A stretch of DNA of 64,000 nucleotides from Limnochordales bacterium. Its GTDB lineage: Bacteria > Bacillota > Limnochordia > Limnochordales > ZCTH02-B6. The translations under genes were made by a program, and so were the position numbers. This document shows, piece by piece, positions 4,015-20,947 of the stretch. The stretch's first letter is position 1. Each line of letters begins with the position of its first letter. The notes beneath the pieces were generated by a model that was given only the letters and a program-made list of their open reading frames with translations, had not been told where the DNA came from and did not search any database. The stretch is from NCBI GenBank assembly GCA_035304545.1, contig DATGPV010000054.1:74473-138472 (forward strand), in the 5' to 3' direction.

Positions 4015-5060
4015 GGCGCTTCCCCGTACCCCAGAACGTCGACGCCAGGTTCACCCGCCGCCACCCGGCCGATGACCCAGCTCCGCTGCCCCTGCGCGGC
4101 CAAGTGCCGCACCGCGGCGTCCGCCTGGTCCGCGGGCACGATAACGGCCATCCCAATGCCCAGGTTGAAGGTGCGCAGCATCTCGCCGGGGCTCACCCGG
4201 CCCGCGGCCTGGATGAGGGGAAAGATGGCCGGCACCGGCCAGCGGCCCCACTCCAGCACGGCCCGGGTGCCGGGGGCCATGGCCCGGGGCAAGTTTTCCG
4301 GCAGACCGCCGCCCGAGATGTTGGCGATGCCCCGCACCTCCACCGCCTGCAGCAGACTGAGCACCGGTTTCACATAGATGGCCGTCGGCTCCAGCAATTC
4401 CTCGGCCAGGGTCCGGCCCAGCTCGGGCACTACGCCTTCCAGGGGCAGGCGCGCCCGCTCCAAGAGGGCCCGCCGGGCCAGCGAATACCCGCTGCTGTGC
4501 AGGCCCGTAGAGGCCAGGCCGATGATCGCGTCCCCCGGCGCCACCCGTCGGCCGTCGACGAGCCGGTTCTTGGGGACCATGCCCACCGCGAAGCCCGCGA
4601 TGTCGTATTCGCCCGGTCCATAAAAACCGGGCATTTCCGCGGTCTCGCCGCCCAGCAGGGCGCAGCCCGCTAGGCGGCAACCGGCGGCCACGCCCCGGAC
4701 GATGGCTTCCACTTGGTCCGGGTCCAGCCGGCCCACGGCCAAATAATCCAGGAAAAACAGGGGCCGGGCCCCGTGGCAAAGGATGTCGTTGACGCAATAG
4801 GCCACGCAGTCGATGCCGATGGTGTCGTGGCGCCCGGTCATGAAGGCCACCCGCAGCTTGGTGCCCACCCCGTCGCAGCCGGCCACCAGCACCGGCGCCT
4901 CGTCGCCCTCCCCCAAGGCATACGCGCCGCCGAAACCGCCTACGTGCAGCAGCACCTCAGGACCCAGCGTCGGCTGCACCAGGGCCTTGATGCGGGCCAC
5001 GGCCCGGTAGCCCGCTTCGATGTCCACACCGGCTTCCTTGTACGTCAATCCCTCATCCAC
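4011..5060 (-). CDS. purM: Phosphoribosylformylglycinamidine cyclo-ligase (AIR synthetase) with two atypical active-site substitutions
   Basis: TYKEAGVDI, DGVGTKL, NDILCHGARPLFFLDY, GGETAEMPG, TFNLGIG; reads HSSG instead of HSNG and ANISGGG instead of AHITGGG. Confidence 0.95.
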   Translation of the reverse strand: MDEGLTYKEAGVDIEAGYRAVARIKALVQPTLGPEVLLHVGGFGGAYALGEGDEAPVLVAGCDGVGTKLRVAFMTGRHDTIGIDCVAYCVNDILCHGARPLFFLDYLAVGRLDPDQVEAIVRGVAAGCRLAGCALLGGETAEMPGFYGPGEYDIAGFAVGMVPKNRLVDGRRVAPGDAIIGLASTGLHSSGYSLARRALLERARLPLEGVVPELGRTLAEELLEPTAIYVKPVLSLLQAVEVRGIANISGGGLPENLPRAMAPGTRAVLEWGRWPVPAIFPLIQAAGRVSPGEMLRTFNLGIGMAVIVPADQADAAVRHLAAQGQRSWVIGRVAAGEPGVDVLGYGEAP

Positions 5061-6441
5061 GGACTTTCTCCTCCCGCCTCTGGGTGGGGTGCACGTCCCC
5101 CGGGGGCACGGGGTACCTCCCCGTCATGCAGCCCAAGCACAGCTGGTCCGGGCGAACGCCGATGGCCGCGCACAGCCCCTCCACGCTCAGGTAGTACAGG
5201 GAGTCGGCGCCGATGTAGCGGCGGATGTCTTCGATGGTGCGTTGCGCGGCGATGAGCTCGCCCCGGGACGAAATGTCGATGCCGTAGGGGCACGGATGCA
5301 CAAAGGGCGGCGATGCCACGTACATGTGCACTTCCTTGGCGCCCGCCTCCCGCACCAGGGAGACCGTCCTGCGGGACGTGGTGCCCCGCACGATGGAGTC
5401 GTCCAGGACGACCACCCGCTTTCCGGCCAGCACCCGCCGGTTGGGATTCAGCTTGATCTTCACCGCCAGGTGGCGCACGGCCGCGTCGGGATGGATGAAG
5501 CTGCGGCCCACGTACCGGTTCTTGACCAGGCCGATCTCAAAGGGAAGCCCGGCGGCTTCGGCAAAGCCCATGGCCGCGGACGTGCCCGAATCGGGCGCGG
5601 CGATGACCACATCGGCTTCCACCGGCCGCTCCTGAAACAGTCGCCGCCCCACTTCCTTGCGCACCAGGTGCACGTTGCGGTCGAACAGCTCCGAGTCGGG
5701 GCGGGCGTAGTAGATGTACTCAAAGGCGCAGGGCGCGCGGGACGGCAAGGCCTGAGGCCGGCGCCGGACGACGCCGGCCTTGTCCACCAGCAGCAGCTCG
5801 CCGGGCAAAAGTTCCTGCCCGTCCTCGATGCCCAGGGCGGTCAAGGCGCAAGTTTCCGACGCCACCACCACCACGCCGTCGGAGTGGCCGAAACAGAGGG
5901 GCCGGATGCCGTATGGATCCCGGAAAGCCACCAGGGCCGCGGGGGTGAGCAGTATGACAGCCCAGCCCCCCTGCAGCGAGGCCATGGTCTGCCCCACGGC
6001 TTCCTCCAAGGGCACCCCCGCGCAGCGGGCCAGCCGGCTGAGGATAACCTCCGCGTCGCTGGTGGTTTGGAACACCGAACCGCCCTGCTGCAGGGCTTGC
6101 CGCAAGGCGTGGCCGTTGATCAGCGCGCCGTCGTACGCCACAGCCACCGGCCCCCGGCTGGTGTAGGCCATCAGGGGCTGGATGTTGGCGGGGTCCTGGG
6201 CGTCGGCCCGGGACGAGAGCACGTGGCCTATGCCCGCCGGGCCCGGTAGCCGGCCCAGCACCGCCCGATCAAACACTTCGGGCACCAGTCCGTGGCCCTT
6301 CACTACCTGGATGCGGCCGCCGTCGGCCACCGCGAGGCCGCAGCTTTTCTCGCCCCGGTGCTGCAGCGCGTACAGCCCAAGGTAGATCCGGTCCGCCGCC
6401 CGGGACCCCTCAGGGCCCCAGACGCCGATGACTCCCGCCAT
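5053..6441 (-). CDS. purF: Amidophosphoribosyltransferase with a degenerate glutaminase domain (no Cys1)
   Basis: Starts MAGVIGVWG after a [63 protein letters not shown]. Confidence 0.95.
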
Positions 6442-20025: not shown

Positions 20026-20947
20026 TCCCGCGCCCCCCCATCAGCAGGAAAAGCACGGCCATGCGTACCGCGACGCCGTTGGTCACCTGATCGTGCACCC
20101 GGGCCCGGGGGTCGTCCACGGCTTCCTGCACGATCTCCACGCCCAGGTTGGCGGGCCCGGGATGGAGGATGAGCGCGTCGGGGCGCAACAGGTCCAGGCG
20201 CTCCCGGGTCAGGCCAAAGCGGCGGGTGTATTCCCTGAGGCTCGGGATGAGCGCGGTGTGCTGGCGCTCCCGCTGGATGCGCAAGATGTTGACCACATCG
20301 ACCTCGGGGAGAACTTGATCCAGATCGTGGCTGACGGCTACCCCCAGCTGCTCCAGGCCCGGCGGGATCAGGGTGGGCGGGCCCACCACGGTGATGCGGG
20401 CCCCCAGGGTGCGCAGGCCCCAGATGTTGGAGCGGGCGACGCGACTGTGGAGAATATCCCCCACGATGGCCACGTGCAGGCCCGCCACATGGCCCTTGGC
20501 CTCGCGAATGGTGAACAGGTCCAGCAGGGCTTGGGTGGGATGCTCGTGCATGCCGTCGCCCGCGTTGATGACCGCGGCCCCGATGGTGCGGGCCAACAGG
20601 GCCGGCGCCCCCGCCGAAGGGTGGCGGATGACGACGATGTCGGCGCCCAGGGCCGCCAAGGTCCTGGCCGTGTCCGTCAGGCTTTCGCCCTTGACGACGC
20701 TGGACGCGGGCACCGAGATGTTGACCACGTCTGCGCTCATCCACTTGCCCGCCAGTTCGAACGAGGTGCGGGTGCGGGTGCTGGGCTCATAAAACAGGTT
20801 GACCATCACCTGCCCCCGCAGGGTGGGCAGCTTCTTGACGTCCCGGCCGAAGATGTCCTTGCAGGCCACGGCCGTGTCCAGCACTTGCTGGATGTCGGCC
20901 GCGCTCAGATCCCGCATGCGGATCAGATGCCTGCGCGCCCAGGCCAT
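20009..20947 (-). CDS. pyrB: Aspartate carbamoyltransferase catalytic subunit
   Basis: FYEPSTRTRTSFE, KGESL, INAGDGMHEHPTQALLD, HSRVARSN, LRIQRER, HPGP. Confidence 0.97.
   Translation of the reverse strand: MAWARRHLIRMRDLSAADIQQVLDTAVACKDIFGRDVKKLPTLRGQVMVNLFYEPSTRTRTSFELAGKWMSADVVNISVPASSVVKGESLTDTARTLAALGADIVVIRHPSAGAPALLARTIGAAVINAGDGMHEHPTQALLDLFTIREAKGHVAGLHVAIVGDILHSRVARSNIWGLRTLGARITVVGPPTLIPPGLEQLGVAVSHDLDQVLPEVDVVNILRIQRERQHTALIPSLREYTRRFGLTRERLDLLRPDALILHPGPANLGVEIVQEAVDDPRARVHDQVTNGVAVRMAVLFLLMGGRGNAMAA

Follow-up and report, generated by a model that had tools for sequence, protein, structure and literature searches.

Textbooks give glutamine as the nitrogen donor in purine synthesis. 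What, then, supplies the nitrogen in a bacterium whose purine (pur) operon encodes a phosphoribosyl pyrophosphate (PRPP) amidotransferase, PurF, without its glutaminase nucleophile, and a formylglycinamidine ribonucleotide (FGAM) synthetase, PurL, without the glutaminase PurQ and the adaptor PurS? We examined this question in a 64,000-nucleotide stretch of about 70% G+C from a Limnochordales bacterium (the window; positions 74473-138472 of contig C54 of the genome under study, henceforth G000), on which genes were called from Pfam and NCBIfam profile scans. The G000 assembly comprises 69 contigs with a total of 2.58 Mb, and marker genes put its completeness at 98.03%. We found that its guanosine monophosphate (GMP) synthetase, GuaA, encoded outside the window, has lost its catalytic cysteine as well. 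Given the lesions in PurF, PurQ/PurS and GuaA, all three glutamine-dependent steps of purine synthesis are therefore without a working glutaminase, and free ammonia (NH3) probably feeds the pathway at PurF, PurL and GuaA, which is our best explanation from the sequence comparisons below. The features on which the argument depends are as follows (bit scores against profile cut-offs; all pur and pyrimidine (pyr) genes of the window are on the minus strand).

5053-6441, minus strand: purF, PRPP amidotransferase (TIGR01134, 434.6 bits against 350)
6436-6438, minus strand: GCG (Ala) codon at the position of the Cys1 nucleophile of purF
6410-8731, minus strand: purL, small FGAM synthetase of 773 aa (NF002290, 902.5 bits against 648)
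8728-9609, minus strand: purC, phosphoribosylaminoimidazole-succinocarboxamide (SAICAR) synthetase (TIGR00081, 217.3 bits against 189.9)
8728-8731, minus strand: ATGA in which the purC stop and the purL start overlap, read directly in the sequence
Contig C58, 35300-36904: guaA, GMP synthetase (NF000848, whole protein, 654 bits against 400)

The nucleophile of PurF is Cys1, and replacing it in the Escherichia coli enzyme abolishes the use of glutamine while the use of ammonia remains (Mei and Zalkin 1989, as quoted in PMC3261824; this and the other PMC-numbered papers are cited here for excerpts of their text). PurF of G000 begins MAGVIGVWG. In a residue-level alignment with the Bacillus subtilis structures 1AO0 and 1GPH, continuous over residues 3-445 (E 5.9e-128 for 1AO0, with query residue 3 on chain residue 2), Ala2 occupies the place of the mature Cys1, i.e., of the nucleophile of this N-terminal nucleophile (Ntn) glutaminase; same-genus PurFs begin MCGVIGV. 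An alternative start upstream could not give the protein a cysteine because the aligned position itself is Ala. Two further residues of the glutamine site are replaced: 'GHVRYATAG' of 1AO0 reads 'GHVLSSRAD' (Leu for Arg), and 'HNGNLVN' reads 'YDGALIN' (Asp for Asn), in columns that we take to be Arg73 and Asn101 in E. coli numbering, with roles at the glutamine site. The pattern C, R, N, D at the glutamine-site columns is found in 123 of the 150 nearest PurF representatives. The phosphoribosyltransferase (PRTase) half is conserved and retains the cluster cysteines (4Fe-4S, B. subtilis type) of 'CAFEY', 'HPCPYG' and 'CLGC', and the whole protein passes the TIGR01134 equivalog cut-off despite its dead domain. 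G000 has only this one PurF, the two other matches to the model being GlmS (MCGIVAY) and AsnB (MCGISGW).

Neither partner of the small PurL was detected anywhere in G000: profiles of the PurQ domain (PF13507) and of PurS (PF02700), which match 14 and 12 of 14 control genomes, respectively, gave no match in the whole genome, and tblastn searches with PurQ and PurS of the same-genus genome G002 gave best E values of 0.07 and 0.015, i.e., chance level (the best PurS match spans 51 residues). There is no large PurL with a fused glutaminase (GATase_5) in G000 either. In G002 purS and purQ are located between purC and purL, and the purC/purL junction of G000 is the place where they sit in same-genus relatives. 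PurL is a typical member of the small type and occupies the same place in the operon (TIGR01736, 826.4 bits against 525.75), with two peculiarities. A Pro/Gly/Ala-rich stretch of 31 residues specific to G000 (7382-7474, residues 420-450), presumably near the auxiliary nucleotide site of small PurL, stands where seven relatives, PurQ-less ones included, carry a conserved 'QYDYE..G..T' and are about 20 residues shorter, and the 'GVPTVGGE' motif is altered. As a separate observation, PurC and PurS of G002 share a single 348-aa frame (contig C76, 7877-8923), which may be a purC-purS fusion or contain an internal start.

These results bear out the purine half of an earlier, sequence-only reading of the window, which had claimed that PurF lacks Cys1 and other glutaminase motifs, that purS and purQ are absent and that the synthetase halves are full length. 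The first claim was confirmed by the 1AO0 alignment, the second genome-wide by profile search and tblastn, and the third, for the PurF PRTase half and PurL, by profile scores and alignment; the ATGA overlaps that it had placed at purC/purL (8728-8731) and pyrC/pyrF (18739-18742) were both seen on direct reading, and no second, Cys1-bearing PurF came to light in G000.

GuaA takes the case further than that reading had, as its catalytic cysteine proved to be lost. Specifically, in an alignment with E. coli 1GPM (E 2e-148) 'gvCYGMQtmamqlgg' is replaced by 'aiGSGMAllaaqlgg', with Gly for the catalytic Cys, and 'ilsGGPes' by 'vlcGEPag', while HPE is retained. The N-domain scores 118.9 bits, under the TIGR00888 cut-off of 172.15, and lacks the triad Cys of a glutamine amidotransferase (GATase); the C-domain (ATP-pyrophosphatase and dimerisation) is over the TIGR00884 cut-off (487.9 bits against 338.75). 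The Cys-His-Glu triad is called invariant across GMP synthetase sequences in a review (PMC10526850). A class I GATase scan of G000 gave seven matches, namely TrpG/PabA, PyrG, CarA, HisH, the GuaA N-domain and two PuuD-like proteins. We also considered a separate glutaminase subunit of GuaA and rejected it, as none of the seven matches corresponds to GuaA subunit A above cut-off.

In G000 the usual glutaminases can no longer bring glutamine to any of the three steps at which purine synthesis takes up amide nitrogen, i.e., PRPP to phosphoribosylamine (PurF), formylglycinamide ribonucleotide (FGAR) to FGAM (PurL) and xanthosine monophosphate (XMP) to GMP (GuaA). PurF and GuaA retain a full-length N-terminal domain without its nucleophile, and PurQ with its adaptor PurS has been cleanly deleted from the operon. 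Under the mechanism that we propose as the most likely one, free NH3 would enter the synthetase sites directly, at the PRTase domain of PurF, the lone small PurL and the ATP-pyrophosphatase (ATPPase) domain of GuaA, and this would build on an NH3 side activity that canonical enzymes already show in vitro. Small PurL alone is said to have NH3-dependent activity, reportedly in work by Hoskins et al. of 2004 in Biochemistry, and we found no citable source for that activity in the literature searched. External ammonia is a substrate for GMP synthetases and for the ATPPase subunit in isolation, the ATPPase module being independent of the GATase (PMC10526850). For PurL, PurS has been reported as required in B. 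subtilis (PMC3261824). We infer that purine nitrogen comes from NH3 in vivo; a hot, alkaline habitat rich in ammonia would make the loss tolerable or advantageous.

The same losses recur among relatives, which we surveyed in a set of 41 genomes including G000. PurQ and PurS are present in exactly the same 21 genomes and PurL in 37, and 16 PurL-bearing genomes are without both PurQ and PurS. The same-genus genomes G001, G002, G004 and G005 have purS, purQ and a Cys1 PurF; in G003 purC abuts purL without purS or purQ, and PurF and GuaA are canonical. The purine proteins of G003 that we compared are 84-96% identical to those of G002 and 59-83% identical to those of G000, and its purS/purQ deletion appears to be independent of that of G000. 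PurF was found in 36 genomes, with a readable Cys1 column in 33: Cys in 27 and another residue in 6 (Ala in G000; Ser in G022, G027 and G040; Gly in G024 and G029). Among the 16 PurL-bearing PurQ-less genomes, four lack Cys1, four have a changed Arg or Asn column (G006, G025, G034 and G036) and eight are canonical; Cys1 is missing in 2 of the 17 readable PurQ-bearing genomes. GuaA was found in 39 genomes, its nucleophile motif being present in 21, absent in 17 (10 of which also have a shortened N-domain of about 120-180 residues) and truncated by the end of a contig in 1. Of 17 scorable PurQ-less genomes, 14 are without the motif, versus 3 of 21 PurQ-bearing ones. On a tree of the GuaA C-domain from 37 genomes, the PurQ state requires at least 8 changes, 4 of them forced by well-supported branches, and the GuaA-Cys state at least 5.

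Two genomes of family f7, G024 (contig C28) and G029 (contig C1), carry a 948-aa PurL with an N-terminal PurS fusion and a separate PurQ, together with Gly at the Cys1 column of PurF and a GuaA without Cys and HPE; any combination of the three losses can therefore occur. At the level of the class, the PurQ domain was found in 33 of 95 species genomes and small PurL in 78. Crossing the two by hand gave 29 genomes with both, 49 with PurL only (one of these has 6 contigs, and several are 99-100% complete), 4 with the PurQ domain only and 13 with neither; in three of the four PurQ-domain-only genomes the domain sits in a long frame, as is typical of large PurL, and one genome has a completeness of 79%. 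We also sampled 201 genomes evenly across the phylum; the PurQ domain is found in 171 of them and a PurL-type match in 197. Of the 195 sampled genomes that do not belong to the class, 25 are without PurQ (10 of these were identified by comparing the PurQ and PurL genome lists), and 14 of the 25 have a strong small PurL. The PurQ-less state thus occurs elsewhere, yet is concentrated in the class Limnochordia. A search for related loci in contigs gave 21 loci, the nearest at 53% identity, in metagenome-assembled genomes from digesters that are labelled Bacillota.

We also looked at PurF more widely. Among the best 150 of 18,246 PurF matches, the Cys1 column holds Cys in 132, another residue in 8 (Ser in 6, Gly in 1 and Met in 1) and a gap in 10. 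When these were pooled with the relatives (184 PurF rows), 12 rows were without Cys, and the Cys1 state required at least 11 changes on a FastTree tree. Asp stands at the Asn column in 8 of these 12, and in 0 of 159 PurFs with Cys1. This recurring Asp may be neutral, given that one transition turns AAC into GAC and increases G+C, or it could mark a re-tooled site.

A first alternative is that glutamine or another amide donor is still used, either through a partner hidden from homology searches or through a changed chemistry of the N-domain. The association of Asp for Asn101 with the loss of Cys1, together with the frequency of Ser as its replacement, looks like a selected alternative site rather than drift, and the dead domains are under some constraint (see below). 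G000 also has two orphan triad-bearing GATase-like proteins of the PuuD/C26 type (C54:152907-154046 and C58:46806-47849), with Cys and HPE intact and no assigned partner, whose best NCBIfam match is gamma-glutamyl-GABA hydrolase, below cut-off. However, neither Ala at position 1 of PurF nor Gly at the nucleophile position of GuaA can be a nucleophile, there is no new gene in or beside the pur operon, PurQ has been lost together with PurS, the adaptor that a glutaminase needs for docking on small PurL, and the C26-like proteins have no link to purine genes. We consider a hidden amide donor unlikely.

A second alternative, which we rate as quite unlikely, is that the de novo pathway is decaying, that purines are salvaged from compost and that the dead glutaminases are the first lesions of pseudogenisation. 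Loss of the pathway does occur in the class: four of the relatives (G007, G012, G020 and G035) are without PurL, PurF, PurQ and PurS and all keep GuaA. In G000, by contrast, all ten pur genes that we found are open and full length, and eight of them score above curated cut-offs. Those of the window that are not listed above are the following.

362-1651, minus strand: purD (532.3 bits against 288)
1733-3355, minus strand: purH (714 bits against 402)
3361-4014, minus strand: purN (217.3 bits against 150.1)
4011-5060, minus strand: purM (416 bits against 236.35)
9680-11014, minus strand: purB, adenylosuccinate lyase (Pfam Lyase_1 and ASL_C; start codon not fixed)

The rest of the operon (purM, purN, purH and purD, 362-5060) is full length throughout. 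The two genes that do not exceed a curated cut-off are purB, of which a fragment cut at profile position 16 was scanned (TIGR00928, 291.8 bits, below cut-off), and purE, which lies outside the window on contig C46 and matches Pfam only.

Evolutionary rates bear on the same alternative. We counted unique changes in G000 and G003 in Tajima's relative-rate test with G008 as outgroup. The glutaminase domains have changed faster in G000 (PurF N-domain 39 versus 16, p 0.002; GuaA N-domain 43 versus 8, p 1e-6), and the synthetase domains less unevenly (PurF C-domain 18 versus 8, p 0.05; GuaA C-domain 24 versus 15, not significant). PurL is accelerated (87 versus 50, p 0.0016), whereas PurM (16 versus 21), PurN (18 versus 12) and PurC (22 versus 27) show no significant difference; comparisons of G003 with G002 were balanced throughout. 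Pairwise ratios of nonsynonymous to synonymous substitution rates (dN/dS, by NG86), which are rough since dS is 0.4-1.5, were 0.25-0.36 for the PurF N-domain in pairs with G000 versus 0.11 for the pair G003-G002, and 0.32-0.46 versus 0.08 for the GuaA N-domain. The C-domains gave 0.10-0.24, and a range of 0.10-0.19 applies to PurM, PurN, PurC and the synthetase domains of PurF and GuaA. The glutaminase domains are thus relaxed yet not free (dN/dS below 1), and the synthetase parts and the other pur genes, the accelerated PurL apart, are under ordinary constraint. The acceleration of PurL and its altered conserved motifs are what decay would lead one to expect, as is the PurL of G038, a PurQ-less genome of 6 contigs, which lies in two adjacent frames of 269 and 478 aa with a TAA between them (contig C3, 372728-374894) and could reflect a split gene, pseudogenisation or an error of sequencing. 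Against decay, PurM, PurN, PurC and the synthetase domains of PurF and GuaA show no significant acceleration, the lesions are restricted to glutaminase modules in three cases out of three, which random decay does not predict, and the same selective pattern recurs in many lineages that retain the rest of the operon. Overall, the rates are more consistent with a functional pathway that can do without glutaminase chemistry than with a dying one.

A third alternative is an artefact of assembly or binning, in which purQ, purS and a normal purF and guaA were left unassembled or unbinned; 69 contigs at 98.03% completeness leave some room for it. Yet purC and purL overlap by four bases on an uninterrupted contig where relatives hold purS and purQ, and the lesions in PurF and GuaA are substitutions within the sole copies found. 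The sequence is also present elsewhere: all sampled words of 5000-9700 are contained in 14 DNA runs from 6 studies of compost or soil metagenomes (some of these runs may be the source of the window DNA itself), and one DNA contig covers the whole of 5000-9700 with 0 differences. Contigs from two RNA sequencing (RNA-Seq) libraries of one study match the window with 0-1 differences, although they leave several bins of the stretch uncovered. One of them spans 5489-6452 (the end of purL and the start of purF with its Ala, Leu and Asp codons) with 0 differences, and another bridges the purC/purL junction (8655-8807), also with 0 differences, as DNA contigs do too. A C>T difference at position 6151 in purF in one RNA-library contig (X18) is probably a strain variant. 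The PurQ domain is likewise missing from 49 of the 78 PurL-bearing genomes of the class, and we regard an artefact as very improbable. The labels of all runs that hold the stretch (compost or soil) fit the ammonia-rich habitat, such as compost, that had been guessed from the sequence alone.

The weakest alternative is that pyrimidine synthesis is independent of glutamine as well, with carbamoyl phosphate made by a carbamate kinase; carAB is indeed absent from the pyr operon of the window, but CarA and CarB are present elsewhere in G000 with the catalytic Cys, PyrG is intact and no carbamate kinase ArcC was found in the genome, which makes this hardly tenable. The features in question are these.

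16038-17102: thiL, downstream of the pyr block
17027-17605, minus strand: pyrE
17687-18742, minus strand: pyrF
18739-20025, minus strand: pyrC
18739-18742, minus strand: pyrC/pyrF ATGA overlap, read directly in the sequence
20009-20947, minus strand: pyrB
20969-22270, minus strand: permease, in the pyr block (17027-22270), which is without carAB

CarA (TIGR01368, 409 bits against 307.35) and CarB (TIGR01369, 1407.1 bits against 1027) are encoded side by side on contig C4, and CarA has 'GICLGHQ', with the catalytic Cys, and 'HPEASPGPHD' in register with E. coli CarA. PyrG keeps 'GICLGLQ' and 'FHPE'. The G-x-C-x-G elbow and HPE are kept in TrpG/PabA, PyrG, CarA and HisH, and nucleophiles are retained in HisH, TrpG/PabA, GlmS and AsnB. 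For ArcC (TIGR00746), the best G000 match scored 40.9 bits against 358.25, the matches being other amino-acid kinases. GlnA, a large glutamate synthase (GOGAT) in a 1562-aa frame, glutamate dehydrogenase (GDH) and one Amt are present, and the 356-aa frame of NadE is too short to include a fused glutaminase. The sequence-only reading had every glutaminase component of both operons dead or missing, with carA and carB absent and perhaps a carbamate kinase in their place. The absence holds for the pyr operon and not for the genome, the carbamate kinase finds no gene to support it, and CarA and PyrG contradict the wider claim: among GuaA, PyrG, GlmS, HisH and TrpG, the catalytic Cys is lost in GuaA only. 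What stands of that interpretation is its purine half, to which GuaA and the recurrence across the class are now added. Since CarA, PyrG, HisH, TrpG/PabA, GlmS and AsnB are intact and GlnA and GOGAT are present, the loss is confined to purine synthesis, and the pyr block has no part in it because carAB is intact on C4; this is not a general glutamine-independent nucleotide synthesis.

Three side observations belong to the same genes and their surroundings. On contig C4, the large glutamate synthase, glnA, carB, carA, asnB and hisH lie within about 16 kb (3900-19732), with all checked nucleophiles intact. A second full-length CarB (1452 bits) is encoded at C61:19797-22964 beside an amino-acid-kinase-like gene, although the genome search revealed just one CarA. 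The plus strand of the window between its pur and pyr blocks (11193-16135) carries two YheC/D-like ATP-grasp genes and a gene for a phiEco32-like COOH-NH2 ligase type 2, a group that looks like a peptide-ligase cluster.

Returning to the feeding of purine synthesis by free NH3, several points weigh against it. Very high Km values for NH4Cl have been reported for some GMP synthetases, reaching 174 mM in the human enzyme (PMC10526850), and with such values the direct use of NH3 may need adaptation that is not visible here. The acceleration of PurL, the insert that replaces 'QYDYE' and the changes in 'GVPTVGGE' could mean loss of function rather than adaptation. Glutamine is available in G000, yet only the purine enzymes gave it up. 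Tests of co-occurrence in phylogenetically independent pairs do not reach significance, the pairs being few: for PurQ loss against GuaA-Cys loss there are 4 pairs, of which about 2 go the same way (p 0.25-1), and for Cys1 loss against the Asn-to-Asp change there are 6, with 3 the same way and 0 opposite (p 0.25). Finally, G000 is an assembly of 69 contigs, contigs from RNA libraries do not prove transcription, and the use of NH3 in vivo is something that we infer from genes.

We found no published description of a bacterial purine pathway without glutaminases (most subscription journals lay outside the search), the nearest case being the PurF' paralogues of Crenarchaeota (PMC3261824). These occur in purine clusters with Ala or Val for the N-terminal Cys, and their authors put them forward, as a proposal only, as PRPP aminotransferases that depend on ammonia (Brown et al. 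2011, Biol Direct 6:63, PMC3261824). Like PurF of G000, PurF' is a non-Cys PurF-like protein among purine genes. However, as described in the same excerpts, it always accompanies a canonical Cys1 PurF in the same genome, whereas the Cys-less PurF of G000 is the sole copy; unlike PurF', it is also bacterial, of the B. subtilis 4Fe-4S type, and its loss is joined by those of PurQ/PurS and of the GuaA nucleophile. The E. coli Cys1 mutants (Mei and Zalkin 1989, via PMC3261824) are the laboratory equivalent of G000 PurF, except that they were engineered, and that in G000 the Arg and Asn positions have changed too, with 39-43 lineage-specific N-domain substitutions. The PurL-PurQ-PurS complex of B. 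subtilis and Thermotoga maritima has the same small PurL in the same operon position (PMC3261824, PMC7124931), but G000 has neither partner. One-chain and two-subunit GMP synthetases share the ATP-pyrophosphatase domain with GuaA of G000 (PMC10526850); the triad that the excerpted review calls invariant has Gly in G000, and the N-domain is shortened in 10 relatives.

Two better-known systems offer looser parallels. Mitochondrial carbamoyl-phosphate synthetase I (CPS I) resembles PurF and GuaA of G000 in keeping a glutaminase-like domain while using free NH3. That domain of CPS I is without the catalytic Cys. CPS I structures (PDB 5DOT and 6UEL) were matched in our structure alignment search with CarA; it is, however, another enzyme in another pathway, and eukaryotic, and the small subunit of carbamoyl-phosphate synthetase is intact in G000. 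Among NAD synthetases, NH3-dependent and glutamine-dependent forms, without and with a glutaminase domain, coexist across species (PMC3376133). That split is a long-known dichotomy of a whole family, whereas a glutaminase loss across the purine pathway was not found in print.

A broader joint claim, which we put forward only tentatively and consider doubtful, is that Limnochordia have repeatedly dismantled their purine glutaminase modules (at least 8 changes in the PurQ state) as an adaptation to hot, ammonia-rich compost and digesters, and that the PurF N-domain was re-tooled as an entry site for ammonium. As part of that same doubtful claim, with Cys1 replaced by Ser, Ala or Gly and the oxyanion Asn by Asp, the carboxylate would capture NH4+ and pass NH3 on into the channel that is already there. 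One order of Limnochordia found in digesters is reported to tolerate high temperature and ammonia, in excerpts that do not mention purines (PMC12663870).

For the class as a whole, the finding is that a group common in compost and biogas reactors is mostly without PurQ and PurS, and that many of its members have a dead or shortened glutaminase in GuaA or PurF. Automatic annotation still calls such enzymes 'glutamine-hydrolysing' because whole-protein cut-offs are passed. If the feeding of purine synthesis by free NH3 is true, it would be a natural switch of nitrogen donor at the level of a pathway, tied to the chemistry of the habitat; metabolic models of digester and compost communities would have to be corrected, and these bacteria would provide natural enzymes in which to study how ammonia reaches amidotransferase active sites without a glutaminase.

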